This document shows, in pieces, positions 4,789-58,400 of a DNA stretch of 64,000 nucleotides. Under the pieces are notes generated by a model. That model did no database searches. It was not told the DNA's origin and saw only the letters and a list, made by a program, of their open reading frames with translations. Location of the stretch: assembly GCA_963528575.1 (NCBI GenBank), contig CAURUS010000001.1:108807-172806 (forward strand), given 5' to 3'. Every line of letters starts with the position of its first letter. The first letter of the stretch is position 1. Made by a program: the position numbers and the translations under genes. This DNA is from an uncultured Candidatus Saccharibacteria bacterium. Its GTDB lineage: Bacteria; Patescibacteriota; Saccharimonadia; Saccharimonadales; Saccharimonadaceae.

Positions 4789-6042
4789 TTATGCTTTGCT
4801 GCCGTCTAGAGCTGGCGGCGACTTTAACTCCGCAATCGGTAGCCGAAAGCCAAAAGTACTACCCTTGCCGAGCTCCGATTCGAAAATCATCGTACCGCCA
4901 TGCCCTTCGACTACTTTCTTCGCCAAGAACAAGCCGATTCCCGTGCCGTCCGGCCGCTGCCGCCGAGCGTTATCGCCGCGAAAGAACTTAGTGCCGAGCT
5001 TTTTCTTGGCAGATGGCGATACGCCCATTCCCTTATCGATTACCCGCAAAACTGCCTGGCCATCTTCAATTGACAATCGGACCTTTACCGTATTAGCGTC
5101 TGGTGAATAATAAATAGCGTTATCAATGAAATTCATAATAACTTGGCGAATCTTGGTGTCGTCTAGATACAGCAGCGGAAAGCGCGCTGGCTGGCGATAC
5201 GTGACCTTGACCTTATGCGTATTTGCCACCTGATCTACGTTCGCAACCTCTTCGGCAACCAGCTGCGACAAATTAACCGCTGTACGATTGATAATAAATT
5301 TACCAGTCTGCAAACGGCTCACGTTCAAAAAATCACTAACCAATCGCACCATCCGCTCGCTGCTGCGAAAAGCCTCTTCTAGCAGCTGCCGCTGCGGCGG
5401 TGTAATCTCGCCAGCGTCGCCCTCGAGAACCATACTCAGGTAGCCCTTCACGCTGGTCAGCGGCGTCCGCAGCTGGTGGCTGGCCATACTGACAAACTCA
5501 TCTTTAGTGGCATCCAGGGCCTGCAATCTTTTGTTGGACTGGCGCAGCTGACTGGTCGCCTCATCGACTTCCTTCTCTAAATTTCCAGCTAAGCGGCGAA
5601 TCTCCTCTAGGCGAAACATGTTCAAAAGCGCCACCGATAGATTACGCGCCAAAACATCAAACAGCTCAAATTCCTTACCGCGAATCTCGCAGCCGTCACG
5701 CCGCTCGCCAATTACCAGGCAACCAATTTTCTGATCGGCAACACATAGCGGTAAGATTGCTGCAATACCATATCGAGTATAATCACCAATGTCGCCAGAA
5801 CCAAGCGTCTGCGAATCCAACCATGCCGGCACATTACGCTTGCCAGCAATATACGGCTGGTGATATTGATCGCAAAAAGCCACGCCAGCAAAACGTACTT
5901 GCAGTACACTAACAAAAGTTTCTAAATAGCTATTTAGCAATGTATCAATATCTTTGGCATCAACCATTTTGCGCGTCAGAACGTCCACAACTTGTTGCGA
6001 ACGATACGATGGACGGCGAACTCTACCAAAAAACCGCTTCAT
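4789..6042 (-). CDS. Cytoplasmic sensor histidine kinase (GAF-like N-domain, HisKA, HATPase_c)
   Basis: H-box [14 protein letters not shown]; N box [11 protein letters not shown]; G boxes DKGMGV and [10 protein letters not shown]. No TM segment. Confidence 0.9.
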
Positions 6043-43730: not shown

Positions 43731-44342
43731 CTAGTTTTCTTGTTTGGTTGAATTTGCAGCGCTGAAATCAACCGACGGAGCTTTATTAGCACCAGCATCC
43801 GACTCAAAATACGGTCGCTCCTTGAAACCGAACATGCCCGCTAACAAATTTGTCGGGAAAGATTTAATTTTCGTGTTATATGATTTAGCAGCGTCATTAA
43901 AGTCATTGCGCGCCACCGTTATACGATTTTCTGTACCTTCTAACTGCGATTGCAAATCTTTAAAGTTTTCCGTTGCTTTGAGCTGCGGATAATTTTCAGC
44001 GACCGCCAACAGCCGGCTAAGCGACGAGCTAACCTCACTTTGAGCCTGCTGGAATTTGGCTATATCATCTGGATTATTAGCATCGACTTTAATTTGCGTA
44101 GCTTTAGCGCGCGCCTCGACTACCTTCGTTAATGTCTCTTGCTCGAAATTAGCCGCACCCTTTACGGTGTTCACGAGATTAGGAATTAAATCGCTGCGCC
44201 GTTGATATTGCGACTCAACCTTGCTCCATGCTGTATTAACCGACTCGCGGCTAGCCACCATGCTATTATAAGATCCAGCGACTATCATTATTAGCAGCAA
44301 CACCACGCCGCCGATGACTGCTGGGATTTTCCAATTTTTCAT
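43731..44342 (-). CDS. lemA: LemA family protein
   Basis: N-terminal TM then NSMVASRESVNTAWSKVESQYQRRSDLIPNLV..., typical LemA. Confidence 0.85.
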   Translation of the reverse strand: MKNWKIPAVIGGVVLLLIMIVAGSYNSMVASRESVNTAWSKVESQYQRRSDLIPNLVNTVKGAANFEQETLTKVVEARAKATQIKVDANNPDDIAKFQQAQSEVSSSLSRLLAVAENYPQLKATENFKDLQSQLEGTENRITVARNDFNDAAKSYNTKIKSFPTNLLAGMFGFKERPYFESDAGANKAPSVDFSAANSTKQEN

Positions 44343-44441
44343 TCCAACCTCCTACTTGCTGATAGCCCTTATTTTATAGACAATTAGCCAAAAGTGCAAC
44401 AAAAGCGACTGTCGCCGTGAATTCCGCGTCAAAAAGGCAGT

Positions 44442-45857
44442 TTACTGCGGCAGCTGCCAAATCCGGACCCAGTCAACTTCCATCGGCCAGGTTTTGCCCG
44501 TGCCCAATATGACATCCATCGCTGTCTCTGAATCAAATATCGCGAGCGGGTTACTAATTGGCGATGGACCACCGGCTTGCGTCACCGGGTCTTGCCGAGG
44601 GTCGTTCGGCGCTAGCTGATCGCGGGTAGCACCCCAATAGTAGCGTATAGTTAATTTACCATCAATATACCACTCAATTTTTTCGGTAGTCCATAAACAT
44701 CCGTATGTATGCCATTGCGACACATCTAGCCCTGCCTGCGAAGTATAATGTCCTCGGTTGCGTATAATTTTAGTTTGATCCATTGAATCATAATACGCCC
44801 ATGCCGACCCTAACATCTCGCCCGGCCGCATGATTTCAACCATATCAAGTTCAGCAGACGGTATGGCGTTATTGCGATGCCTGGAATGCGATTGCGCCCA
44901 AAATGCCGGCCATGAAGAATTTTCCGGCGGCACATTGCGCACGCCATTAGCGTCAACGCGCATCCGCACTTCGTAATAGCCATGTTCAAACGACTGTCCT
45001 GCATACGTATTCGGGTCGCGCGTCATGAAATTACGGTTGTAAGTACTGTGCGTCGGAGCAATCCGCAGCACCGAATTATTCACGGAATACTCGTTGGGCT
45101 GGGTATCGGGCTTGCCCCATTTGTGTACGCCCGCCGGGTACCACTTGAAGCCTGGCGCGCCAGTATTGCCGGTGTCGATGGTGCTGATTGAGTCAAAATC
45201 ATCTTCAAAAGCCAAGCGATTATATTTGCCAGCTGCTGCCGGGACGGTTGGTGACGGAGTCGGTGTAGGTGTAGGTGTAGGTGTAGGTGTAGGCGTAGGA
45301 GTTGGTGTCGGATTTGGAGTTGTGTTATTATTTGCCGAAGCCGCAGAAACCGGTCTCTTGGCATAACCCAGATACTCATAGCCGTCGATCTTTGGTGGCA
45401 AATACTCAACACTTTCGCCGTCTTGCACGGTCACCGTGTCGGTTGCGCCGATACTATCAATGATAGCCGAAGCCGCTTGATTGTTAAGCGCCAACCCGCC
45501 AACGCTAACCGCTAGTAACAGCAGAGCTCGGCCCTTTTTGCTGCGCAGCAAGAAATAGCCGCCCAGCGCCGCCAGCAAGCCACCAACAGCAAAATACGCT
45601 ACCAAAATCCTCGCATCGCTGCCTGTCTCAGCCAAGCGTCCGCCGCCTTGGTACGCCAGCAAAAATTCCGAATTGGCGTCGTTAGTAGTCAACGTTATTT
45701 TTCCTGAGGCGATGGAATTCTGTTCGGTTTTCGATAGCGAACTTTTGACCACACTGCGAAGCCGAATAGTTTTTGAACCGGCATGCGCAGCCGGCGGCGC
45801 GACAAAATTCACCGCAACAACAGCGGCGATGAATAATCCTACTATTTTCTTTTTCAT
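44442..45857 (-). CDS. GH16 beta-glucanase-like surface protein with an internal LAETG sorting signal and (TP)n linker
   Basis: GH16 catalytic motif AELDMVE (ExDxxE), WPAFW, WHTYGCLW..IEWYIDG. N-terminal signal peptide. LAETG+TM+RSKKGR lies ~75-110 residues from the ATG 45857 start. ATG 45857 follows a GAGGGA RBS. Confidence 0.85.
   Translation of the reverse strand: MKKKIVGLFIAAVVAVNFVAPPAAHAGSKTIRLRSVVKSSLSKTEQNSIASGKITLTTNDANSEFLLAYQGGGRLAETGSDARILVAYFAVGGLLAALGGYFLLRSKKGRALLLLAVSVGGLALNNQAASAIIDSIGATDTVTVQDGESVEYLPPKIDGYEYLGYAKRPVSAASANNNTTPNPTPTPTPTPTPTPTPTPTPSPTVPAAAGKYNRLAFEDDFDSISTIDTGNTGAPGFKWYPAGVHKWGKPDTQPNEYSVNNSVLRIAPTHSTYNRNFMTRDPNTYAGQSFEHGYYEVRMRVDANGVRNVPPENSSWPAFWAQSHSRHRNNAIPSAELDMVEIMRPGEMLGSAWAYYDSMDQTKIIRNRGHYTSQAGLDVSQWHTYGCLWTTEKIEWYIDGKLTIRYYWGATRDQLAPNDPRQDPVTQAGGPSPISNPLAIFDSETAMDVILGTGKTWPMEVDWVRIWQLPQ
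45250..45312 (-). repeat. Hexanucleotide (ggtgta)n tract encoding a (Thr-Pro)n linker
   Basis: Five perfect ggtgta units from 45262 plus degenerate flanks. Translates to TPNPTPTPTPTPTPTPTPTPTPSPT. Confidence 0.9.
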
Positions 45858-45957
45858 TGAATCCCTCAACTCTTTTTGTTTTAACGCCTGATGACGCTTA
45901 TGATTATATAGCTAATGACGATACAATGCAAGCGAAATAAGTACGGGAATGCTGGAT

Positions 45958-46428
45958 TTATTGGCGCGTAACTTTGACCATCGCGTCGCGAATCACTACA
46001 CCGTCTAGCGTGTAGCCAGCACGCAGTTCCTCGGCAATCACTTCTTTGTCGCCTTCTGTTTCTTCGTCAAATTGAATAGCTTGGTGCAGTTCAGGGTTAA
46101 ACGGCGTACCGGGTTTGGCGTCAATTTTCTCGAGGCCGATTTCTTTGAGTTGCTTGTCGAGCTGTTTATTCAGGCCAGCCACGCCTTTCGCCCACGGATT
46201 ATCTTTCAGCTCCTCCGGCACATTGGCAATCGCCCGCTCAATCGTATCGATCACTGGCAGCAGTTTCATCACCGACTTCGCCTGGCCCATTTGGTGTGCC
46301 GATTGCTTTTCCGCCTCGACACGCTTGCGATAGTTCTCGAAATCCGCCCGCGTCCGCTGCAAGTCCAGCGTCAACTCGCCCAATTGCTGCTCTAAGTCTT
46401 CAGTTTTGTTAGTCTTATTCTTTGTCAT
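45958..46428 (-). CDS. grpE: Nucleotide exchange factor GrpE
   Basis: 156 aa, ...RTRADFENYRKR...LLPVIDTIERA... Confidence 0.9.
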   Translation of the reverse strand: MTKNKTNKTEDLEQQLGELTLDLQRTRADFENYRKRVEAEKQSAHQMGQAKSVMKLLPVIDTIERAIANVPEELKDNPWAKGVAGLNKQLDKQLKEIGLEKIDAKPGTPFNPELHQAIQFDEETEGDKEVIAEELRAGYTLDGVVIRDAMVKVTRQ

Positions 46429-46437
46429 TTTTTCCTC

Positions 46438-47148
46438 CTACAACATTCCCTCTAGCATAGCACCGGTTCGGCGCACCAGCTCCATCGTTCGGCGATAATT
46501 TTGCCGCGTCGGGCCAATCACGCCAATATAGCTATCATCGCTAAACGGCGAACGGAATTTACTGATAATCAGCGTAGCGCCGCTTGCTTTACCAATCGGG
46601 TTTTCGCTGCCGATAAATACATTCAGCGGCTGGTTGGGCGCGGCTTCGGCCAGCCATGGCTCGATATTATCAATTAGCCTAGCAATCGCCTGCACATGAT
46701 CGCCGCCAGCGAACTCCGGCTGAGAAAAAAGCTGCGTCATACCATTCATGTATAGCTGCGCGCCAAACGATGCGAAACCAAAGTTGCCCGTCAGTTCTAC
46801 CAAGCTATCGACGGCGCTGCGAATCGCCCGATCCGACTTATCAACATGCGAATTAACGTGCGCCTCGATCGCTCTCGCACTGCGATCGATACCACTGGGC
46901 AGTTCAGTCATCTGCGCGTCAGTAATGCCGTTAACGTAGAATCGGTAACCCTTATCAGTCGGGATGCGGCCGGCGCTAGTATGCGGCGCTTCGATAAAGC
47001 CCATCTCTTCCAGCTTAGCCATTTCGCTGCGAATCGTCGCGCTACTCACGCCAAACAATTTCGCCAGCGTCACACTGCCTACTGGCGCAGCAATTTCAGC
47101 ATACTGCTCAATGATAGCGGCGAGAATAGCCTGTTGACGTTCGGTCAT
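46438..47148 (-). CDS. hrcA: Heat-inducible repressor HrcA (short, 236 aa)
   Basis: [72 protein letters not shown]. Confidence 0.88.
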
Positions 47149-47154
47149 GAGCTA

Positions 47155-47195
47155 ATTATAGCGCACTTTTAGCACTCATGCAAGGCGAGTGCTAA
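47155..47195 (-). promoter_or_regulatory. hrcA-grpE promoter TTGCAT-17-TATAAT overlapped by a perfect CIRCE (47169-47195); ATG 6 nt after the -10
   Basis: TTAGCACTC-atgcaaggc-GAGTGCTAA. On the minus strand, TTGCAT (47183-47178) lies in the CIRCE spacer. TATAAT at 47160-47155. Confidence 0.85.
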
Positions 47196-47905
47196 CTACT
47201 CGCTTTCAATTGCTCTAGCAAATCTCGCGCCGCCAGTCTAGCTTCATCGTCTTTACGGTTATAGACGTCTGGCTTTAGAGCGATTGCCCGCACAATCCGC
47301 GCCGTCTCATCAATATCATCATTAATGACGAAATGATAATACGGCACTTCAAGCGCATGGGTAATTTCGCGAATCGCACTATTGTAACGCTTCGGCCATT
47401 CGCGATCAAATTCTTCCTGCGAAGCATAACGCACGCTAAGACGGCGGCGCCATTCTTGATAATTTGGCGGTAACAAGAATATCGCCACCACACCAGGCGA
47501 AAGCTTCTTATATTCATCGACACCTTGCACATCAATATCAGTAACCGCAATTTTACCAGCATCGCGAATATCTTCAATCTGTTTGACACCGGTTCCGTAA
47601 ACCGTACCGTGCACAAATTTCGCCTCGACAAAAGCATGACTTTCCAACAATCTAGCGGCAGTCGCTTCATCAATATAGTTATAATCAATACCTTCACGCT
47701 CCCATATACCTTTATTTTGACGCGGCTGGCGAGTCGTATACGACACAATATCAGCAAACTCCGACGACTGCATTAATCGCTGCTTGGTCGTATCCTTGCC
47801 TGCGCCCGATATACCGACGAGCAACACAATTTTAGTTTGAATAACAAGCTGGCGAACCGACTCGCTAGGTTGATATTCTTTGATAAGCTTTTCGATCTTT
47901 GACAT
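47192..47905 (-). CDS. Guanylate kinase-family protein
   Basis: P-loop GISGAGKDT, ...SYTTRQPR...GIDYNYI...HGTVYGT...DIDVQG. The stop codon lies inside the CIRCE. Confidence 0.7.
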   Translation of the reverse strand: MSKIEKLIKEYQPSESVRQLVIQTKIVLLVGISGAGKDTTKQRLMQSSEFADIVSYTTRQPRQNKGIWEREGIDYNYIDEATAARLLESHAFVEAKFVHGTVYGTGVKQIEDIRDAGKIAVTDIDVQGVDEYKKLSPGVVAIFLLPPNYQEWRRRLSVRYASQEEFDREWPKRYNSAIREITHALEVPYYHFVINDDIDETARIVRAIALKPDVYNRKDDEARLAARDLLEQLKASS

Positions 47906-47914
47906 AATATCTGC

Positions 47915-48382
47915 TTATAATAACTCATCCAGCACCGATTGCCAATCAGGAAATTCGGGAGTGCCAAAATGAATATGCCGGCCGACAAACTCAGCAGCGC
48001 CTTTAGTTGTCCGGTCATCAATCAAAATATCACCGCGACTCAGCTGCTTGACCGACGAAAATACGACTTTGCGAAAGAAAATATTTTCTTGGCCATCGCC
48101 GCCAAAGTGCTTCTTTACCCACGCCAGCTTATCATCCAGCGCTGTCGGATTTTCCCATGGCGACGACGACAAGATGTATAGATCGTACTTTTCTTTCAAT
48201 GCATCTACCGCCTCAAGGGCGCCTGGCATCGGATCCATTAGCGCGAAAATGCCCGGAATATTGTCGTACTCACCCGCAAACTTCTCAAGCATCTCGGGCG
48301 GAATCTTCGTCAAAGCTGATTCAAAATCAACCAGCACGCCATCCATATCGATGTAGATGATTGGTTTGCTATTTAATTTCAT
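47915..48382 (-). CDS. HAD-superfamily 5'(3')-deoxyribonucleotidase (NT5C-like)
   Basis: IIYIDMDGVLVDF (DxDGV nucleophile motif), 155 aa. Confidence 0.75.
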   Translation of the reverse strand: MKLNSKPIIYIDMDGVLVDFESALTKIPPEMLEKFAGEYDNIPGIFALMDPMPGALEAVDALKEKYDLYILSSSPWENPTALDDKLAWVKKHFGGDGQENIFFRKVVFSSVKQLSRGDILIDDRTTKGAAEFVGRHIHFGTPEFPDWQSVLDELL

Positions 48383-48426
48383 AAATTACTTCACCAATTA
48401 TAGCACTTTTGTAGTACAATAAAGAC

Positions 48427-48545
48427 GTCTACATCTAGAACATGTCCAATCGGGAGTTGATTCACACGCATAATGGGCAGCCGTTATCGGACGTGTGAAT
48501 TTACGTTCTAGGTGTAGACAGCCAATTTAACGGCTGTCCTTTTTG
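48427..48545 (+). ncRNA. Candidate structured RNA (sRNA or riboswitch-like leader), class unknown
   Basis: TACAAT at 48415-48420 places a TSS at about 48427. 15-bp P1 (48427-48441/48505-48519), 9-bp P2 (48460-48468/48492-48500), 7-bp P3 AUAAUGG-GCAG-CCGUUAU, 18-nt asymmetric loop, then a terminator. Confidence 0.55.
48517..48545 (+). terminator. Intrinsic terminator closing the structured RNA
   Basis: GACAGCC-aatttaac-GGCTGTC then CTTTTTG. Shares 3 nt with the P1 3' strand. Confidence 0.6.
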
Positions 48546-48572
48546 TTGGGCAGCATTCCTAAAGGAGGGATT

Positions 48573-49025
48573 ATGAATACAAAAGAGAAAAAGCCAATTT
48601 ACAAAAAGGTTTGGTTTTGGGTATTGGCTGTTGTCATCATAGGCGCAATTGGCGCTGGCATGAACGGCACAAAGAATCAAGCCAATGAAACGACCAAATC
48701 AACCAATAACTCGACAAGCCAACCACAACCGGAGCAAAAAACCAGTGAAAACAAAGCACGCTTGACACTGGATGACGGCTGGAAAATTGATAAAAGCAAT
48801 CAATATCTCACAAAGGTTGTCGGCACGGTTTCAAATAATTCTAACCAGGCAATTAATGGCTATATTCAAATTACTTTTTCAGGACTTGATGCTAGTGGCG
48901 CTAATGTCGGAGATTGTCTTGCTAATGCTAATACTGTTGATGCCAATGGCAAGTGGAAGTTTGAAGCAATGTGTTCTGGTCAAAATATCGAGACAGTACG
49001 GTTCAAAGAAATTACTGGGTTCTAA
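48573..49025 (+). CDS. Small membrane-anchored secreted protein, FxLYD-domain-like
   Basis: AAAGGAGGG RBS. One TM, then GTVSNNSNQAINGYIQITFSGLDASGANVG...NGKWKFEAM, resembling FxLYD domains from memory. Confidence 0.65.
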   Translation: MNTKEKKPIYKKVWFWVLAVVIIGAIGAGMNGTKNQANETTKSTNNSTSQPQPEQKTSENKARLTLDDGWKIDKSNQYLTKVVGTVSNNSNQAINGYIQITFSGLDASGANVGDCLANANTVDANGKWKFEAMCSGQNIETVRFKEITGF

Positions 49026-49055
49026 TTAATTATATAGACCGCAGCATGCAATAAT

Positions 49056-49083
49056 AAATAGTCCGACGTTTGCGGACTATTTT
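49056..49083. terminator. Bidirectional terminator
   Basis: aaatagtccg-acgtttg-cggactattt. Confidence 0.6.
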
Positions 49084-50056
49084 AATCTCTCTTTAACATC
49101 ACCATAAACGCTTCACTCGGAATGTCAACCTTGCCGAAGCGTTTCATACGCTTTTTGCCGCGAGCTTGTTTGGCGAGAAGTTTCTTTTTGCGGCTGACAT
49201 CGCCGCCGTAGAGGTAGCCGGTGACATCTTTGCGGTAAGCGCCGATGTTTTCGCGGGCGATAAATTTGCCGCCGATTGCCGCCTGTAATGCCACTTCAAA
49301 GCTCTGGCGCGGCACCACGTCTTTCAATTTCTTGACGATTTCGCGACCCAAACCTGGTGCCTCCGAACGGTGACACATCACGCTCAGCGCATCAACCATT
49401 TCGCCCGCTACATAAAAATCAACGCGCACCAAATCTTCCGGCTGATAGCCCGCCAGCTCATAATTAAACGAACCGTAGCCGCTGGTCACCGACTTCAATT
49501 GATCATAAAAATCCGTCAGCAGATTTGCCAGCGGCGCCGTAAAGGAAATCAGCGCCCGCTCGTCGATGTAGCTGAGGTTTTTCTGCCGGCCGCGCTTGGC
49601 GACAATCAGCTGAATCACCGCACCGATGTAGTCCTGCGGCACCACAATTTCACCGTCAATCCACGGCTCGCGAATTTCTTTGATCTGCGCTGGGTCAGGT
49701 AGTTCGCTGGCCGATTTGATATCCAACTCCTCGCCGTTCGTCAAACTAACTTGATAATCCGTACTCGGATTGGTGACGATGAGATCCAAATTATACTCGC
49801 GCTCCAGCCGCTCGCGAATGATATCCATGTGTAGAAGCCCCAAAAAGCCAATCCGCACACCATACCCCAACACTGGTGAATTCTCCGGCTCAAACTGCAG
49901 CGCTGAATCGCTCAGACTCAGCTTTTCAATAGCCTCTTTCAGGTCATTATAATCTTCGTTAGACACCGGAAAAAAGCCCGCGTAGACGAAGGGTTTAACT
50001 TCTTTGTAGCCGGGGAGGGGTTGGATGGTGATATGAGACATATTAGTAAAGTGCAT
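49082..50056 (-). CDS. lepA: Elongation factor 4 (LepA), C-terminal fragment (domains III, V, CTD) of a split gene
   Basis: ...ITIQPLPGYKEVKPFVYAGFFPV...GFLGLLHMDIIRERLEREY...YGGDVSRKKKLL..QARGKKRMK. Continues exactly where ORF 53912..54898 stops. Confidence 0.9.
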   Translation of the reverse strand: MHFTNMSHITIQPLPGYKEVKPFVYAGFFPVSNEDYNDLKEAIEKLSLSDSALQFEPENSPVLGYGVRIGFLGLLHMDIIRERLEREYNLDLIVTNPSTDYQVSLTNGEELDIKSASELPDPAQIKEIREPWIDGEIVVPQDYIGAVIQLIVAKRGRQKNLSYIDERALISFTAPLANLLTDFYDQLKSVTSGYGSFNYELAGYQPEDLVRVDFYVAGEMVDALSVMCHRSEAPGLGREIVKKLKDVVPRQSFEVALQAAIGGKFIARENIGAYRKDVTGYLYGGDVSRKKKLLAKQARGKKRMKRFGKVDIPSEAFMVMLKRD

Positions 50057-50111
50057 TATAACATTTTTGTCCGAAGACGTCGATTAAGCAACGTATTTCA
50101 CAAAAACCACG

Positions 50112-50831
50112 CTAATTGATATACCGCTCAATACGCTTAGCTCGCAGAGTTAGCACCTCAGTCAAGCCTTGCAAATATGCCGTATACTGCTCAACAGTCT
50201 GAGGTAACGGTGACGATTGAAAATCATCAAAATCTGTTAGTATTTTAACTTGGTATTTATCATCAACAAAATCTTGCAACAAGAAAAAATCGACATAGCC
50301 CTGAAAATCACCAAACCACTCAAAAAAGTCACGATAACGATCAAAAACATTAGCGAGTGGGCTGTCTTTACCTTGATACCAGCGGGCAATACATTCTAAA
50401 GTCAGGTCAAACCGATCACCAATTTTGCGGTGCCAACCTCTCGCACGATTGATGGTCTGCGTTCCGCCGCGTAGTTCGCTGGGGAAAATAATCTCTGAGC
50501 CGATGCGCCAATCAATATTATCTATTGCCGTCAAAGTATCTCGTGATGTCTGCTCAACAATCAGCTTATTGCGCTTCCAAGTTTCAAAAGTAGCTACCAT
50601 ATTATCACTTGAAACAGGAATCTGGCGCCGACCATCACTAGCCATCAAGTACGCTCCTTGATCCAACATAGTCAGCTGACGACCGTCAGGCAGTGGTTTA
50701 GTCCATAATTCAGCATGATAGCGCTTTAACGTCGGGCTGTGCTGATCTGGATCTTTATTGTTAGCGTCTTGACGACAATCAAACCAAACATCAATCATTA
50801 GTGTCGCTCCTTTCTTGGTACTAATTTGCAT
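50112..50831 (-). CDS. Hypothetical protein (239 aa), unknown family
   Basis: ORF trimmed to ATG 50831 because the 50990 start overlaps the upstream gene by 130 nt. Acidic C-terminus FFEWFGDFQGYVDFFLLQDFVDD. Confidence 0.6.
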   Translation of the reverse strand: MQISTKKGATLMIDVWFDCRQDANNKDPDQHSPTLKRYHAELWTKPLPDGRQLTMLDQGAYLMASDGRRQIPVSSDNMVATFETWKRNKLIVEQTSRDTLTAIDNIDWRIGSEIIFPSELRGGTQTINRARGWHRKIGDRFDLTLECIARWYQGKDSPLANVFDRYRDFFEWFGDFQGYVDFFLLQDFVDDKYQVKILTDFDDFQSSPLPQTVEQYTAYLQGLTEVLTLRAKRIERYIN

Positions 50832-50859
50832 ATCGCATACAATATACAAATTAAAATAC

Positions 50860-51843
50860 TCAATCCGCCGCAATAACGTCCCCAACAGACCGCCGCTTGG
50901 AATAAGCCTGCCGCTCGCCATAGCCGATGCGTAGCAAAATAGTCGGGTATTCTCCAGCCAGACCCAGCGTCCTTGCCATCTCTGAGGCAATCTCTGCTTC
51001 TTCGTTTGGCTGGTTCAGATAGGCATGAGCGATCCCAAGTTCCGTGGCAGTCAGTAAGAAACGCTGCAGCGTCCGACCCAAGTTCACCCATTCGCGCCGA
51101 CTATTTTCTCTCGTCGTAAAAAGAACCAGATGAGAAGCCGATGCTATCTTTTCGCGATCGGCCTTATTCTGCATCTTAGCATTGATAGCCATCGACATGA
51201 TTGGCTCAGCCATCCAGCGCGGCACATTAGGCGCGCCAAACACGGCGTAACTCAGCCCATCAAGTGTTTGATCTTGATGCTTCTTATTAAATCGCATCCA
51301 GCTTTTCAATTCAGCCTTAAACGCCTCTTTTTGCATTTGACGCGTATTGCCCTGAAGAACGTATTGCTCAATATCATTAAACTGTTTAGTTTGACGCGCG
51401 TAATAATGAACCGAGATACCCTTTTCACTGCGGATAGATTGTAATTTCTTTAGTACATCTAAGGCAATTTCCTCACCGTTATAAACACTGCGGTTAGTCT
51501 GCCGCGCGTCTATCTGATTGAACAATGGATTTGGCTTAATATCCGCCTTTTCCATGAGCGAAACCGTGATAACCCCCTTATCACCAACCGAAACGGCAGA
51601 TTTATAGCCCTTAGTTTGCGCCGCCAAGCAAAGATTCTCTACTGCACAGCCCAAACTCACAAACAACTCCCTGTCATCAGGATCAACTACCGGCAGCCTT
51701 CTGTCAAAATCAGGGTGAATTTCTACTGCCGACTCGTTCTGACGAAAGCGCCACGGCTGAGTATTATGACCTGATGGCGCCTTGACAGCTTGCGCAACCA
51801 AAAATTCAAAGTTAGCTGATGATATATTGTTACTGCGAGACAT
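50860..51843 (-). CDS. Nitroreductase-family (tandem-domain, Acg-like) FMN oxidoreductase
   Basis: AVKAPSGHNTQPWRF motif, about 330 aa. Alternative starts at 51852 and 51864. Confidence 0.75.
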   Translation of the reverse strand: MSRSNNISSANFEFLVAQAVKAPSGHNTQPWRFRQNESAVEIHPDFDRRLPVVDPDDRELFVSLGCAVENLCLAAQTKGYKSAVSVGDKGVITVSLMEKADIKPNPLFNQIDARQTNRSVYNGEEIALDVLKKLQSIRSEKGISVHYYARQTKQFNDIEQYVLQGNTRQMQKEAFKAELKSWMRFNKKHQDQTLDGLSYAVFGAPNVPRWMAEPIMSMAINAKMQNKADREKIASASHLVLFTTRENSRREWVNLGRTLQRFLLTATELGIAHAYLNQPNEEAEIASEMARTLGLAGEYPTILLRIGYGERQAYSKRRSVGDVIAAD

Positions 51844-51899
51844 TCTTACCATAATTCTACCCAATACGCGAGCCTTCCCATCTCGTTAGCTACTTCTTA

Positions 51900-52010
51900 T
51901 GACCAAGTATACTCGCCCTATAGGAGCGAGGTCAATCAATATCACCAAGACTAAGCTTTCAGCCATTCTTCTTGAAATCATTGTAATCTTCGTTGGATGC
52001 CAGGAAAAAT
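51900..52010 (-). pseudogene. lepA: Degenerate duplicate of a lepA segment (corresponds to FFPVSNEDYNDLKEAIEKLSLSD of the C-fragment)
   Basis: 51978-52009 tcattgtaatcttcgttggatgccaggaaaaa versus lepA 49944-49975 tcattataatcttcgttagacaccggaaaaaa (26 of 32 identical). Translates FFLASNEDYNDFKKNG*, then KLSLGD after a frameshift. Confidence 0.7.
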
Positions 52011-52135
52011 ATTATTAGATTCTAACTATTTGGTATTATATCAGCTCAGCGTTTTCGTATAAACGCACAATAAATCGCTCCTTGCACGCCTATTTATTCT
52101 CAGCGAATTATTCCTTGCGCATACTGCGGCCTAAT

Positions 52136-52606
52136 TTATAACTGCTCAAAAATCTTATGAGCTTGATTCTTGCCAATAGTCTGAATCAATTCAGCGTAGC
52201 CCATCCACCGCCCGCGTTTAGTTTTGTCGCGACGATAATCCTTCTCATCGGTGATATCGCCCTTAACTATCGCATCAACATTATGCCAAGCAATCCAAGG
52301 TGTATCATCGCTCATAAAGCTATAATCTAGATGAACATGATTTTCGTTGATTAGTTTATAGTCTGACGACGAAAATCCGCGTGCGTACAACTCACGTAGA
52401 ATAACGTCTGCCAGCTCGACAAAACTGTCAGCCGTAACGTATAAAAAGTCATCATACTCCTCGCCAAGCTCGTACGATCGACCATTCATAAAAACACAAT
52501 GCAAATCATCGTCGACAACTTTTTCATCCAGCCACACGCGGCGGTCGCGTGCTATCGGAATCACCCGGCAGCTAATTTTCTCTGTAAAATTTTTGAAGTT
52601 ATTCAT
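52136..52606 (-). CDS. Hypothetical cytosolic protein (156 aa)
   Basis: ORF 19 nt downstream of the preceding gene. No motif recognised. Confidence 0.55.
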   Translation of the reverse strand: MNNFKNFTEKISCRVIPIARDRRVWLDEKVVDDDLHCVFMNGRSYELGEEYDDFLYVTADSFVELADVILRELYARGFSSSDYKLINENHVHLDYSFMSDDTPWIAWHNVDAIVKGDITDEKDYRRDKTKRGRWMGYAELIQTIGKNQAHKIFEQL

Positions 52607-52625
52607 TCTGTATCCAATTTCCGCC

Positions 52626-53264
52626 TCATGCGCTTTGCGTATCTATATACGATGCGCTATTTAATATTTCTTCAAATACTTTACTATTTTGTTTCCAATA
52701 TTCATTGTAAGAGAATACCGATATGTAACGAAGACATCCGTCTTCGCGGCCAACAGCTAAGCGTGTTACCATTTTAGTATTTTCAGGTCGAGAACCGCAA
52801 CTTGATGTAATTCTAACAATACCAACTAAACCATTTTGTTCCAAAGTATCGTCCTTGATATCGACAGTCGCTTGACAATTTTCCAATCCCTTAATAGTAA
52901 AGAATCTTTTCGCGTCTTCGCGCAACTCTTTGCTATCATAAGCCATTTTGCGCACTAATTCATAAGCTTCATCAGGCGCAGCTGGTAACACCAACCGCTC
53001 CGAATCCTGAGTCACGCCAACACCGCTAATTGACTTATTATCCTTGCCCAGTTTATCGCCGTAACCTTCAGTTTTACCGTTTTTTACATCAATCCTTTGC
53101 CACTGCTTTGGTATTAGAAAACGGGTTTTCTGAGTTCTTGCTTCAACCAAATTTTTACTTTTCAGATAGACTGGCACTTCATGCAGCAAATAATCATACG
53201 AAGTATAAGCGCTTACACTGAAACACACTAAAGCTAAGATTAATTTGAGTATTTTTGTTTTCAT
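52626..53264 (-). CDS. Hypothetical secreted protein/lipoprotein candidate (212 aa)
   Basis: Signal-like MKTKILKLILALVCFSVSAYT. TAAAAT lies 6 nt upstream of the ATG. Confidence 0.55.
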   Translation of the reverse strand: MKTKILKLILALVCFSVSAYTSYDYLLHEVPVYLKSKNLVEARTQKTRFLIPKQWQRIDVKNGKTEGYGDKLGKDNKSISGVGVTQDSERLVLPAAPDEAYELVRKMAYDSKELREDAKRFFTIKGLENCQATVDIKDDTLEQNGLVGIVRITSSCGSRPENTKMVTRLAVGREDGCLRYISVFSYNEYWKQNSKVFEEILNSASYIDTQSA

Positions 53265-53292
53265 TTGTACATTTTAATAATAGCACACGTTC

Positions 53293-53901
53293 CTACAGTT
53301 CTACATCCGGCAAGTCCTTCAATTTCTTGCCATCAAAACAAAAGTAGGCTGCACCCTGGTACGCGCCGCTATCATTAACTTGATTCCTGTCCTCAAATAT
53401 TTTTCGCACCAGCGGCGACAAAAACCACCTCTGCCCGCCGTACTCAACTTCGCGTTCACCGACAACTTTAGCGACAATCGTCTGGTCTTTACTAAAGACA
53501 ATTTTATCGCCGTTTTTGAGGCCTTTTCGATAAAAGCTAAACTTTTGATTACTGTTCTTGGCTTTGGTGATTTTATCAAATTCCGCTTCTTTATTTTTCT
53601 GCTCCGGAAAGACCACCTCGCCCTCAAACGACAGCAACAGTTGTCGCACCAAATCATAATCAAGCGCAAAAAGCTCGCTACTACCGACTCGATGCTTGGC
53701 AAATATTTCGTGCAATAGCGTTTCTTTTTCGGAATAATCAGCCACCTCGATCGCAAACAACCGCTTCAAACCAACCACATTGTAGTAGCCGTTCGCCTCG
53801 AGAAAGCGCATCCGCTCTGGGTACTGCTTGGTTTGTGTCTTGCCGATTTTGATAAGACCTGACACTGCAGTGGTCATGACGTAGATGATACCTTTGCTCA
53901 C
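53293..53901 (-). CDS. T5orf172 (GIY-YIG superfamily) domain protein with C-terminal DUF4357/RAMA-like domain
   Basis: GIIYVMTT...GLIKIGKTQT...RMRFL...EKETLLHEIFAKHRV..SELFAL. GTG start 6 nt after AGGAGG, 10 nt downstream of the lepA N-fragment stop. Confidence 0.75.
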   Translation of the reverse strand: MSKGIIYVMTTAVSGLIKIGKTQTKQYPERMRFLEANGYYNVVGLKRLFAIEVADYSEKETLLHEIFAKHRVGSSELFALDYDLVRQLLLSFEGEVVFPEQKNKEAEFDKITKAKNSNQKFSFYRKGLKNGDKIVFSKDQTIVAKVVGEREVEYGGQRWFLSPLVRKIFEDRNQVNDSGAYQGAAYFCFDGKKLKDLPDVEL

Positions 53902-53911
53902 TTCTAGCCTC

Positions 53912-54898
53912 CTATTTGGTCTCTTTCGTGAAGTACTTCTTCAGCGTCACCGTATCACCCACCCGCGCTTCACGCGTGGTTTTTAGGTTGGTGACGATGT
54001 AGCCAATTTCACCAGTATCCAGCGATGGGTCGGCAATCATACCGGGGCTAAGGTGACCAACTTCTAGTGCCAAACCATTAGCACTGGTCGCCATCATGTG
54101 AATCGCTTCGCCTTTTTTAATCTGGCCGTCAACCACTCGCACGTACAAAATCACACCGCGGTAATCATCATAATAACTATCAAAAATCAGCGCCCGTGTC
54201 GGATCGTCCGGCTGGCCAGTTGGTGCTGGGATTCGCTCAACAATCGCCTCCAAAACCTGATCGACATTCTGCCCGGTTTTAGCAGAAATATGAATAATTT
54301 CGCTTTCATCACAGCCCAGCAAATTGATCACCTGCTTGGACACCCGTGGTACATCGGCAGCCGGCAAATCAACCTTGTTGAGCACTGGGATAATCGTGAG
54401 ATCTTGCTCCATCGCCAGGTACACATTCGCCAGCGTCTGCGCCTGAATGCCCTGGCTGGCGTCAACCACCAACAACGCGCCCTCGCACGCCTGCAGGCTG
54501 CGCGATACTTCGTAGCTAAAATCGACATGGCCGGGCGTATCGATAAGGTTGAGATCGTAAGTAACCGACCGCAACGGCCTGTTAGCATCGACTTCGCTGG
54601 CACTTTTCTCTTCAGGCCGCTCGGCCGCCAACTGATCTAGCTTGCGCTCTTGGCCTCGCTTTGCCGGAAAGGCAAAGCCTTCAGAGAAAAGACCAGCAGC
54701 AGTCGACTGATATCTCATCCGCACCGGCGCGAGCTTAATGGTGATGCCCTTTTCACGCTCCAAATCCATCGAATCCAGCAGTTGCGACTTCATCTCGCGC
54801 TTCTCCACCGTCCCCGTCATCTCCATCATCCGATCCGCCAGCGTCGATTTGCCGTGATCGATATGAGCAATGATGCAAAAATTACGGATACGCTCCAC
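53912..54898 (-). CDS. lepA: Elongation factor 4 (LepA), N-terminal fragment (G domain plus domain II) of a split gene
   Basis: [37 protein letters not shown]. Ends ...[21 protein letters not shown]. Confidence 0.9.
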
Positions 54899-54899
54899 T

Positions 54900-56537
54900 C
54901 TAACGCCTCACTCTGCCGAATAGCAGCTGTCGTAATTTCGCAACAATCGGATCCGCCTCTTCAAGCTTAAATACTTTGCTTAAAGCTATATATACCGCAA
55001 AACTCACCACCACAATAACGGTAAACTTCGGGAAAACCGCCATAAAATTCATATCGCGCGACTGCAGCTGTAACATCTGTACTACAAAATAAGTCACCAC
55101 ACCCATAATTGCACTGGCAATCATCATAGTAATAATACTGCGCAGTGTCTTGCGATTAAAAATACCTGGTGTACGTACGTGCAATATAGTTAGCAAAATC
55201 GCAATCTCTACCACCGAAACAATTGATTGCGCCCAGGCCAAACCAAACACCCCCCAGCCGAACAGCTGCGTGAAAATTATTGCCAATACAATATTCAATG
55301 ATATCGTCGCTATCGAAATATACAGAGGCGTTCGCGTGTCTTGCTGTGCATAGAATGTTCGCGCCATAATATGATAAAGCGTCCGGAAGAATATTGATAT
55401 CACCAACGCGCCGAGAACACTAGCAATCGCCGGCTGCCCGCCGTTCTTGATAAACGCCACCACATAACCACGCGCAAAGAAAGTAATCACAGCAATCGGC
55501 AAGGCCAACCAGACAATCCAGCGGAAAACCGAGCGCAACTCTTTCTTGAAGAGGTCAACTCGCCCTTCCGCTAGCCGTTCAGTCATCCGCGGAAAAGCCG
55601 CATTGCTAATAGCTACGCCGACTAGATTTACCGGCATCAAACTCAAGCTTGACGCCTGCTGGTAAACACGCATAATTCCGTCGCCCATCCGTGACGCTAG
55701 ATTAATTTCAACAATTCCATTAAAATAATCAATCCCTTGATCAATTGAGCGCGGCGGTAGAAGTTTCAAAACTTGGCGAAAACCTTTGTTACGCCAAGAA
55801 ATCACCGGGCGATAGTCAAAGTTTACGCCAACCAGACCAATTGAACTAACCACCAGCTGCAAAATTGCCCCTAGCACCACGCCAAGAGCCACGCCCATAA
55901 TGCCGCCTTCAAAAATCTGCCAGCCAAAAATATTAATGCCGTTAGTGAAATACTTAGCACCGACGACGATACCTAGATTATAGATGGTTGGTGCAAGCGC
56001 CAAAAAAGTAAACCGGCCGATTGCCTGCTGCATACTCGATACTACTGTCGCAATCGCAAACAAAAACGGATTGACGGCAATTATACGCATCATACTCACC
56101 GCCAAAGCATGTCCTTGTTCGCCAAAGCCCGGGCCAACAACATAGCGCACCAGCGGGTCGGCAAAGATGATAATCAGCACGCTAGTGATTAACGTCAATA
56201 CCGCAAAGAGATTCAGTAAGCTTGAACTCAGCTCCCACGCCGATCGCTTATTGCCGCTCGCCAAACGCTGATTAAACACTGGGATAAACGATACGCTCAA
56301 AGCGCCCGACACTAGCAGGAAATACATAAAATCCGGCACGGTAAACGCCGCTACATAGGCATCAGCACCCACTTTATAAGTGTCTAGGTACATGCCATTA
56401 ATTAAACGATCGCGGTAAATCCCCAGCAAGCTTGACAGCATTGTCGATCCAGACAGCAGAATTGCCGCCCACTGTACTGACAATTTGCTATTCGCTTTCG
56501 CAACAACCGACCGTACTCGACTTCCTCGCCCCGCCAT
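54900..56537 (-). CDS. murJ: Lipid II flippase MurJ (MviN)
   Basis: 545 aa, 14-TM MOP-family pattern, N-term ...[14 protein letters not shown]...[18 protein letters not shown]. Confidence 0.88.
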
Positions 56538-56540
56538 AGT

Positions 56541-58400
56541 TTATGCGTGTAGTTTTACTTCCTTTGGCAGCACCGCATCCTTCATGTATTTAGCGGCGTC
56601 TTCTTCTTCGAGAGTTTCGTTTTTAAGCAAAGCATCCTTGAGCTTTTCAAGCACTGCCCGATTCTTGCTGAGTATTGTCTCGGCACGAACCGACGCTTCC
56701 TTAATCAGCGCCTCGACCTCGTTGTCAATCTCTTGTGCTGTCGCCTCTGAATATGGCCGGTCGTGGGTAATTTTGTCAAAAACCATGCCGCCATTGTCCT
56801 CGTGGAAGACTTGGTCGCGCAGTTTCGAGCCCATGCCTTGTTCAATTATCATATTGCGGGCAACTTTAGCGGCGTGGCGCAAATCACTGCCAGCGCCAGT
56901 AGTGATACCATCATCACCGTAAATCAGCTTCTCGGCAATCCGGCCGCCCAGCGCTCGCGCTAGAATATCTTTGAACTCGTAAACATTAGTGTAGCTTCTG
57001 TCTTCTGGAGGCAAGAACCACGTCACGCCGCCCGTACCGCCGCGCGGAATGATAGTGATTTTGTGTACTGGATCGCTATCTGGCAAGACATGACCAACAA
57101 TGGCATGGCCAGCTTCGTGATAAGCAGTTAATTCCTTTTCGTGGTCGTTCATTACTTTAGCTTTACGTTCTGGGCCGATAGCCACTTTTTCAAAAGCTTC
57201 GGTCAGGTCGTCATTCGACACTTTCTTGGAGTTGCGCCGCGCTGCGATGATTGCTGCCTCGTTAGCAATATTCGCCAAATCGGCACCGCTGGAGCCAGCC
57301 GTCTTAGCTGCTAATTTATCGAGATCAACCGTGTCGTCAGTCGGCTTATTTTTGAAATGAACTTTCAAAATAGCTTCGCGATCTTTGCGCTCCGGCAAAC
57401 TAATCGTCACGTGCCGGTCAAAGCGGCCTGGTCTGAGTAGTGCCGGATCAAGCACATCAGCCCGGTTGGTCGCCGCGATTACAATCACATTGGTGTCCGC
57501 TTCAAAACCGTCCATCTCTACCAAAATCTGATTCAATGTCTGCTCGCGCTCGTCATGACCGCCGCCCATACCACTGCCGCGTTTGCGCCCGACGGCGTCA
57601 ATCTCATCGATAAAAACAATCGCCGGCGCGTTTTTCTTGGCCTTCTGGAAAAGGTCGCGCACACGGCTGGCACCAACACCGACAAACATTTCAACAAATT
57701 CTGAACCAGAAATCGAGAAGAAAGGTACATCCGCCTCGCCAGCGACTGCTCGCGCTAGCATCGTCTTGCCAGTACCTGGATCGCCAACTAGCAGCACGCC
57801 CTTCGGGATTTTGGCACCGAGACTTTGATATTTTTTCGGATGCTTGAGAAAGTCAACGACCTCTTGTAAATCCTGTTTAGCATTATCATTGCCAGCAATA
57901 TCGTCAAATACCACGCGTTCTTTATCGAGGCCGTATAACCTAGCCTTACTCTTACCAAAACTCATCGCCTGGCTATTCTGGCCCTGAGCTTGCCGCATCA
58001 TAAAAACAAACAGCGCGCCGATCAGCAATACTGGCAAAACCACCGTCATCAAAGTCAGCATCACAGAATTATCAACTGGCGCGCTATCTGAAACGACTGC
58101 ACGGCCTTTTTCGTTAAGTATATTGTCTTTCAGCAGCGACGAAACCCCGCCGCCTAAGTATGTCCGCTTAGACGGCTTATTTTCACCTTTCATGGTCACC
58201 TGAAGGTCGCCGCCTTGGCCTTCGATCTTGGCTACTTTGCCTTCGTTGGCGTCTCGAATCACCTGAGCGATTGGTACTTCCTGGAGCGGCTTAGCCGGCA
58301 TAAATGCCGCATATAGCGACAGTCCTATCAAAACGATAATTGCCCAGAATAAACCGAGCCGAACTTTATTACTCACCTTTTGTTTACGAGGTTTAGGCAT
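56541..58400 (-). CDS. ftsH: ATP-dependent zinc metalloprotease FtsH
   Basis: [34 protein letters not shown] zinc motif. Confidence 0.97.

Follow-up and report, generated by a model that had tools for sequence, protein, structure and literature searches.

A two-gene lepA (EF4) in a Nanosynbacter-like Saccharibacterium: a probable two-piece translation factor around an accessory-gene slot

The window analysed here, a stretch of 64,000 nt from an uncultured Candidatus Saccharibacteria bacterium (assembly GCA_963528575.1, contig CAURUS010000001.1, positions 108,807 to 172,806 of the forward strand), carries lepA, the gene of the translational GTPase EF4/LepA, as two separate open reading frames (ORFs), named lepN (N-half) and lepC (C-half) in this work, with other genes lying between them. 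All coordinates are those of the window, and the genes of the locus are on the minus strand. The conserved upstream neighbour and the parts of the divided gene are as follows.

54900..56537, minus strand: murJ, the conserved upstream neighbour (synteny ftsH-murJ-lepN)
53912..54898, minus strand: lepN, G domain and domain II, 328 aa (ORF list, Pfam, TIGR01393)
54563..54703, minus strand: lineage-specific in-frame insertion of 47 aa in a G-domain loop (aa 66-112), after VRMRY (comparison with Aquifex)
50055..50083, minus strand: promoter-like site directly upstream of lepC, TCGACG-17-TATAAT with TG (consensus match)
49082..50041, minus strand: lepC, domains III and V and the LepA C-terminal domain, 319 aa from ATG 50041 (Pfam, TIGR01393)

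The lepN gene starts with GTG one base past the murJ stop codon, and its product contains the Pfam domains GTP_EFTU (positions 1-187/188; E 1e-54) and GTP_EFTU_D2 (1-73/73), possesses unaltered GTPase motifs (G1, G3 DTPGH and G4 NKVD) and ends with the former inter-domain linker KKYFTKETK, which is followed by TAG. The lepC product contains EFG_III (a weak match), EFG_C and LepA_C (2-107/107; E 4e-43). Along the EF4/LepA reference profile, NCBIfam TIGR01393 (595 positions; curated equivalog cut-off 533.9 bits), the best-scoring stretch of lepN ends at position 282 and lepC spans 280-594, and the two products joined can be aligned end to end with Aquifex aeolicus LepA 2ywe (E 1e-192), the extras being only about 14 residues at the junction and the 47-aa loop insertion. 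An earlier reading of this DNA from its letters alone (the sequence-only reading) had proposed that lepA is broken in the domain II/III linker, that no conserved block is missing and that five same-strand ORFs lie between the halves; both ORFs are found where it put them with the domains it named, the profile and 2ywe alignments are continuous, and the five ORFs are present (T5orf172, 212-aa, 156-aa, nitroreductase and DUF6994 genes). Its C-half, 49082..50056, exists as an ORF open to 50056 (324 aa), but the true start is probably ATG 50041, as ATG 50056 lies inside the TATAAT box and lepC homologues begin at the equivalent of Met6, for example with MSNITIQP, MSLITVQP or MTEKITVQP. The promoter-like site matches the consensus at 10 of 12 hexamer positions and would give a leader of about 7 nt to ATG 50041. 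No second lepA is present in the window besides a 23-codon relic of a lepC head, which is described below. The GC content is 0.40-0.46 in the island between the halves and 0.50-0.55 in lepA.

The two ends created by the break are conserved in relatives. Every split N-half ends with GDTVTL-[KR][KR]Y[FIVM] plus 0-16 residues (1-5 in most cases), and every split C-half opens with a start codon and a few residues, followed by [IV]x[VI][QE]P-LPGY. The junction peptides comprise a tail of 4-20 residues past domain II and a head of 4-12 residues ahead of LPGY, and the linker of intact relatives has 8-12 residues, as in GDTVTT-KRNFTKRQ-LPGY (locus L064; compared loci are numbered in this way) and GDTIVI-EKRESPETVIA-LPGY (L029). 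In the window, the tail KKYFTKETK seems to be the former linker, which has stayed with the N-half; it is similar to KRNFTKRQ of L064, and the lepC head ITIQP resembles the end of the longer linkers. A scan of the window at Rfam gathering thresholds returned tRNAs only and no intron family, and a scan of 48900..55000 at E<=1 returned a chance-level match to AsrC (54828-54889, plus strand; 23.5 bits, gathering score 111) and no intron or other structured RNA in the gap. AsrC is an antisense RNA of the rseC region beside lepA in enterobacteria, and we think that the match mirrors the conserved lepA 5' coding sequence. A gene interrupted by an intron or an intein was rejected as a candidate, on the grounds that no Rfam intron is matched and that junction peptides of 4-20 residues are far under the size of an intein half.

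The murJ-lepA region of relatives and the selection acting on each half, both named as checks in the sequence-only reading, were examined. A total of 86 related loci were compared, 80 from GTDB species representatives and 6 from other assemblies. The II/III split is found in 37 of these, with C-halves 80-99% identical to the window lepC (33 loci with both halves, each with the stop and the new start, and four with a split-type lepC head near a contig end), and 49 loci are uninterrupted at the II/III site. The split loci belong to Nanosynbacter genomes and to more distant Saccharibacteria, and, given enough upstream sequence, they contain both halves in N-to-C order after murJ. The best 120 database matches to lepC (87-98% identity) are, with few exceptions, proteins of the C-half alone (about 304-345 aa, in most cases 316-323), and the best 120 matches to lepN (at least 97% identity) are all of 326-331 aa. 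The split is not an assembly artefact, since N-half-only proteins of at least 97% identity form more than 120 clusters and recur on hundreds of independent contigs, some of them 0.7-0.9 Mb long. The closed genome of the cultured Southlakia epibionticum ML1 shares the split layout (PMC10633639), in the order tilS-ftsH-murJ, N-half SEML1_0727, hypothetical SEML1_0726 and C-half SEML1_0725; the annotation tables of this strain list no further LepA (PMC10633639 Tables S1, S2), and LepA is unmentioned in the main text of that paper. In a wider survey of 50%-identity representatives, the half-length matches checked are gene fragments or chimeras, which are uninformative on splits outside Saccharibacteria. 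One database protein of 322 aa (P0241), in which an unrelated membrane/cytochrome-like N-terminus is joined to lepC residues 79-319, is probably an assembly or gene-call chimera.

Selection was estimated by the Nei-Gojobori method (NG86) on ungapped codon columns, 267 for the N-half and 303 for the C-half. Between the window and split relatives whose synonymous sites are unsaturated, the ratio of nonsynonymous to synonymous substitution rates (dN/dS) is 0.03-0.08 for lepN and 0.01-0.065 for lepC, which matches the values against intact relatives, and in many distant pairs the synonymous sites are saturated with dN still at about 0.1. The median ratio of the uncorrected proportions (pN/pS) is 0.15 (N-half) and 0.12 (C-half) in split-split pairs, and 0.18 and 0.14, respectively, in intact-intact pairs. 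It follows that selection has maintained the two halves after the split no less strictly than undivided lepA, and their GTPase motifs are unchanged. Selection on each half is thus purifying, and of the two alternatives offered by the sequence-only reading, a functional two-piece EF4 fits halves conserved at dN/dS 0.01-0.08 across many species, but a very recent disruption does not fit a split shared by 37 of 86 loci and by the closed S. epibionticum genome.

The space between the halves is occupied by very different sequences. The distance ranges from 149 nt in L006 (a 143-nt spacer) to more than 9.8 kb in L007. In the smallest loci with cargo, the halves enclose just one gene, and stop codons overlap the starts that follow; L005, L036 and L043 have one unrelated 130-aa gene in the gap. 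A survey of ORFs of at least 70 aa in 31 split loci gave 126 cargo ORFs in 48 families, 119 of them on the lepA strand, and the cargo is unrelated between loci. The families include DUF218, three NUDIX families, peptidase S51, GrpB, MazG/dUTPase-like proteins, SDR, SWEET, DNA-alkylation repair, a poly(A)-polymerase/Schlafen fusion and glycosyltransferases, as well as an AlwI-type restriction-modification pair with GmrSD and HEPN. The same variability is seen within the species, where eight loci (L088-L095) encode one identical N-half protein, 99% identical to the window lepN, and display three layouts, the window being a fourth:

Layout A (L088-L091, L094, L095), 1.9 kb: trio of the T5orf172, 212-aa and 156-aa genes
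Layout B (L093), 3.0 kb: trio and nitroreductase gene
Layout C (L092), 6.8 kb: trio, gene of a 1096-aa protein and nitroreductase gene
Window layout, 3.85 kb: trio, nitroreductase gene and DUF6994 gene

Conserved flanks with variable content among close strains, the feature of a genomic island or hotspot, are thus found at this locus. As strains with the same N-half carry different layouts, the 3.85-kb island is composite and younger than the split, and is not its cause. The sequence-only reading had taken the gene to be split by a 3.85-kb insertion, which is at odds with a gap of 149 nt to more than 9.8 kb filled by unrelated cargo and with 1.9-, 3.0- and 6.8-kb versions beside an identical N-half.

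The five cargo genes of the window, in the order of transcription, are as follows.

53293..53901, minus strand: gene 1, T5orf172/MUG113 (GIY-YIG-like) protein, 202 aa (Pfam, PADLOC)
52626..53264, minus strand: gene 2, 212-aa protein with a hydrophobic N-terminus (ORF list)
52136..52606, minus strand: gene 3, 156-aa protein (ORF list)
50860..51864, minus strand: gene 4, Acg-family FMN-binding nitroreductase (Pfam, NCBIfam)
50112..50798, minus strand: gene 5, DUF6994 protein (Pfam)

Gene 1 begins 10 nt after the lepN stop codon, with a GGAGG ribosome-binding site directly past that stop, and its product matches Pfam T5orf172 (E 1.8e-6) and MUG113 (E 7e-5), the best match being PDC-S57 (E 8e-59), a candidate defence family of PADLOC. 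Among the compared loci only L008 and L010 share it with the window, and it is also present in the same-species strains L088-L095. Gene 2 has a weak PsbP match under the Pfam cut-off and none in NCBIfam or PADLOC, and travels with genes 1 and 3 within the species. Gene 3 matches no family in the Pfam, NCBIfam or PADLOC scans, and its homologues sit between lepA halves in seven loci. Gene 4 (Pfam Nitroreductase, E 5e-16; NCBIfam NF047509, E 3e-95) is present in some same-species strains and not in others, and gene 5, which starts at ATG 50798 preceded by AAAGGAG, is matched by DUF6994 over the whole profile (1-226/226, E 1e-76; from residue 66 of the long ORF) and is missing from L010 and L088-L095. 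No integrase or recombinase family was found among the scanned cargo (about 30 families, including the Pfam, NCBIfam and PADLOC scans), no tRNA gene lies at the lepA locus, and a search for terminal direct or inverted repeats around the island gave chance-level matches only. On the other side of lepC, an ORF at 48543-49025 (plus strand; GC 0.41) between lepC and the NT5C gene encodes a secreted-looking protein of 160 aa, and in same-species strains this position is taken by a 241-aa ORF or ParB-CE, or lepC lies directly beside NT5C.

Traces of recombination are preserved in the island itself, the clearest feature being the following.

51941..52063, minus strand: former lepC promoter-like site (TTTATA-17-TATAAT, TG-extended; site 52063..52035) and decayed lepC 5' end

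The relic lepC head comprises 23 codons (FFLASNEDYNDFKKNG*KLSLGD; 52009..51941) and now precedes the nitroreductase gene. Strain L088 (layout A), when aligned with the window, has the same spacer leading straight into its live lepC. Relic lepC heads inside islands are also found in L007, L010, L019 and L025. In L030, a frameshifted lepC-head relic of about 85 codons is followed directly by a 23-codon lepN-tail relic (5362-5675), the latter 100% identical to the lepN tail of the window. This pair resembles a scar at the point where one island was joined in tandem to another, and its order would be the one expected if a circularised lepN-tail/cargo/lepC-head fragment had integrated by a single crossover. 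Natural competence is a trait of Saccharibacteria, and recombination with arms of about 1 kb has been shown in them (PMC10633639). When positions 44000-58400 of the window are compared with L008 and L010, the FtsH and MurJ proteins are 100% identical (DNA 96-97%), but DNA identity drops to 92-95% in the lepA halves and the cargo in common. The dS is about 0.5 in three of the comparisons (N-half and C-half with L008, N-half with L010) and 0.23 in the fourth (C-half with L010). Because FtsH and MurJ are identical and lepA nevertheless reaches a dS of 0.23 to about 0.5, these values suggest a recombination history of the lepA block separate from that of FtsH/MurJ.

Further variation touches lepA and its 3' flank. 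The G-domain loop insertion of the window is missing from Aquifex LepA, is 0 to about 75 aa long in relatives and has no similar DNA in the other loci compared. A second variable in-frame insertion is present in the lepA of relatives after RIPAP. Loop insertions lie at 2666-2915 in L008, 8790-8894 in L005 and 8755-8861 in L036, and L005 and L036, two distant species, carry inserts whose DNA is 86-89% identical to the L008-type insert, between flanking lepA codons that are far more diverged, which suggests a small mobile in-frame element. In L001 (19828-20442) and L003 (19822-20436), some 8.8 kb past the end of lepC, a chimeric ORF combines about 95 guanylate kinase-like residues with a copy of the last 108 or so residues of lepC, which suggests a duplicative insertion between lepC and gmk, and the 3' side of lepC may thus be another site of variation.

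A second break of lepA is present at the boundary between the G domain and domain II in L049, L051-L053 and L069, in which the II/III junction is intact.

L049, L051 and L052, 9640-9790: second break
L053, 8073-8223: second break
L069, about 570-660: second break

In these loci the G domain ends with PAP[KE]EI and a stop codon, and the new start of domain II follows immediately, as a TAATG overlap or as TAA-GTG, with the Shine-Dalgarno sequence AAGGAG or GGAGGAG ahead of it, giving a G-domain protein and a protein of domains II, III and V with the C-terminal domain. This second break is independent and belongs to another Saccharibacteria lineage; across the phylum, the division of lepA has thus occurred at either of two domain boundaries.

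The locus probably encodes a functional two-piece EF4 of a Nanosynbacter-like Saccharibacterium, the gap between its genes being an accessory-gene hotspot. EF4 would be made as two polypeptides, from lepN and from lepC, the latter formed by a short new head (M-x-x-I-T-I-Q-P) followed by domains III and V and the LepA C-terminal domain. In the structures of EF4 and EF-G, domains I-II and III-V are two blocks joined by a flexible linker. The break lies at the hinge that naturally separates the two rigid blocks of EF-G-type GTPases, and the two proteins are predicted to associate non-covalently, in solution or on the ribosome, rebuilding a working EF4. The split is presumably old, kept by selection and inherited or exchanged among many Saccharibacteria species, and the space between the halves may then have become a permissive slot for extra genes, often tightly packed with overlapping stops and starts or provided with a promoter-like site of their own. 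Cargo turnover would be fast and would probably proceed by homologous recombination, with the conserved lepN and lepC as arms. In the window, the T5orf172/PDC-S57 gene and two uncharacterised genes may form a stable trio, to which the nitroreductase and DUF6994 genes would have been added later, leaving the lepC-head relic.

A more far-reaching proposal, which we put forward tentatively and hold to be possible rather than probable, is that lepN and lepC form a natural cassette-exchange platform. The halves would supply universal homology arms by which competent cells exchange accessory and defence genes, co-oriented and co-expressed, from strain to strain and from species to species, the split allele would spread horizontally with its cargo, and EF4 would be the first known non-covalent two-chain translational GTPase.

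Several points weigh against a functional two-piece EF4 of old and simple descent. Production, association and joint function of the two lepA proteins are matters of inference, the putative lepC promoter is a consensus match only, and lepN and lepC score 423.1 and 438.4 bits with TIGR01393, each below the cut-off, which the simple sum of the two scores would exceed. Split and intact species are intermingled in neighbour-joining trees built from the C-half and from FtsH+MurJ, as in the pair of L047 (split) and L041 (intact), with 100% bootstrap, and in the group of the window, L019 and the intact L070, with 98%; simple vertical inheritance from one ancient event therefore needs extra gains, losses or allele exchange. 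Independent identical splits seem unlikely, as all split alleles share the junction peptides, so either the junction moves between species via recombination or it has repeatedly been lost in the same way. Close to the junction, split-split pairs exceed split-intact pairs only slightly in nucleotide identity (0.66 versus 0.58; 0.78 versus 0.735). The lepA gene is dispensable in E. coli. Transposon sequencing (Tn-seq) of S. epibionticum in laboratory co-culture found both lepA halves to be non-essential, and likewise the cargo gene in the gap (PMC10633639). This result fits the known dispensability of lepA and neither backs nor refutes an EF4 function, so it does not discriminate between the models.

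Among other explanations, the one that survives best is subfunctionalisation, in which the split products have taken separate roles, for example as a stand-alone GTPase and as a ribosome- or tRNA-binding protein, and no longer form one EF4. Each half is an independently folding domain block, the halves lie up to nearly 10 kb apart with a promoter-like site of its own before lepC, and neither is essential in Tn-seq, all of which would suit separate roles; however, the halves always co-occur in N-to-C order at one locus and are equally constrained like intact LepA, the minimal loci are tightly packed and operon-like with overlapping stops and starts, and no faster or directional change is seen in either half, so that this explanation is unlikely.

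Less likely still is a split made by a mobile nuclease in the manner of the homing endonucleases that split phage genes, with T5orf172 as the agent or its descendant. The position of that gene 10 nt past the lepN stop, the pattern of site-specific spread given by split and intact alleles that alternate between sister species with shared junction peptides, and the slight excess of identity near the junction among split alleles agree with such an origin, but T5orf172 stands beside the N-half in 3 of 31 split loci, minimal loci are free of any nuclease (the L006 spacer and the 130-aa gene of L005, L036 and L043), the best match of the window protein is the candidate defence family PDC-S57, and no recombinase or integrase occurs among the roughly 30 cargo families scanned. 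The homing-endonuclease analogy of the sequence-only reading is weak, in view of the 3 of 31 loci and of the PDC-S57 match.

A recent disruption, with lepA inactivated by an insertion and the two ORFs left as decaying pseudogene fragments, would agree with the lower-GC, foreign-looking island and with the dispensability of lepA in laboratory culture, but is scarcely credible for halves that recur in 37 related loci at 80-99% C-half identity, that keep dN/dS at about 0.05 with synonymous sites near saturation, and that contain all motifs and no frameshifts or internal stops. Equally improbable is a rejoining of the halves into one-chain EF4 by intron splicing, intein trans-splicing or ribosomal bypass, for which dnaE split inteins and the bypass in T4 gene 60 are precedents in other genes, but against which stand the lack of any intron family match, junction peptides far too short for intein halves, the stop codon that ends lepN, the start codon of lepC with its own Shine-Dalgarno or promoter-like site, and gap contents that are unrelated between species.

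If the halves of this probable two-piece EF4 cooperate, an EF-G-family factor needs no covalent hinge for communication between its G/II block and its III/V/C-terminal block, and Nanosynbacter and Southlakia, two genera that are cultured and transformable, allow a direct test of this. A core gene has here been turned into the flanks of a fast-changing, integrase-free accessory slot in very small genomes, and, as the gap tolerates unrelated genes and the S. epibionticum cargo gene is non-essential in Tn-seq, it could serve as an insertion site with conserved arms for the engineering of Saccharibacteria. Annotation pipelines label the halves 'GTP-binding protein' or 'hypothetical', because each half scores under the cut-off of the lepA model. 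The lepA gene is used as a single-copy marker, and where it serves as such, completeness estimates and marker trees for the phylum could be affected. The locus is relevant both to research on translation factors and to that on candidate-phyla genomes.

A literature search on split lepA/EF4, Saccharibacteria hotspots, elongation-factor gene fission and split genes of Patescibacteria found no paper describing a split lepA, and the locus can be set beside four kinds of known systems. Canonical EF4/LepA (TIGR01393; 3CB4, 2YWE, 4W2E) has the same five domains in the same order, with the same G motifs and C-terminal domain (joined halves, E about 1e-190), but in the window it is encoded by two genes broken at the II/III linker, with products under the family cut-off, a 47-aa loop insertion in lepN and a new 8-residue head in lepC. 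Nanoarchaeum equitans has a reduced genome with split protein genes. These are alike in being divided at domain boundaries into conserved ORFs presumed to reassemble, in an ultrasmall episymbiont, whereas the lepA halves share one locus and one strand and keep their order, close relatives differ in whether they have the split, and the gap has come to house cargo. In Aeromonas phage Aeh1, nrdA is reportedly split by mobE, a free-standing homing endonuclease gene, and the likeness would lie in a nuclease-family gene between two seemingly functional halves; in contrast, most split lepA loci lack a nuclease-like gene, their cargo is large, varied and mostly metabolic or defensive, and they lie on a bacterial chromosome. 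Chromosomal hotspots and defence islands share with this locus the conserved flanks, the strain-level turnover, the lower GC content and the defence genes (restriction-modification, GmrSD, HEPN and candidates). Unlike at classical hotspots, the lepA flanks are the halves of one gene, no integrase, tRNA gene or other att-type target is associated and 119 of 126 ORFs are co-oriented, and relic copies of the flanks point to homologous recombination rather than to site-specific integration.

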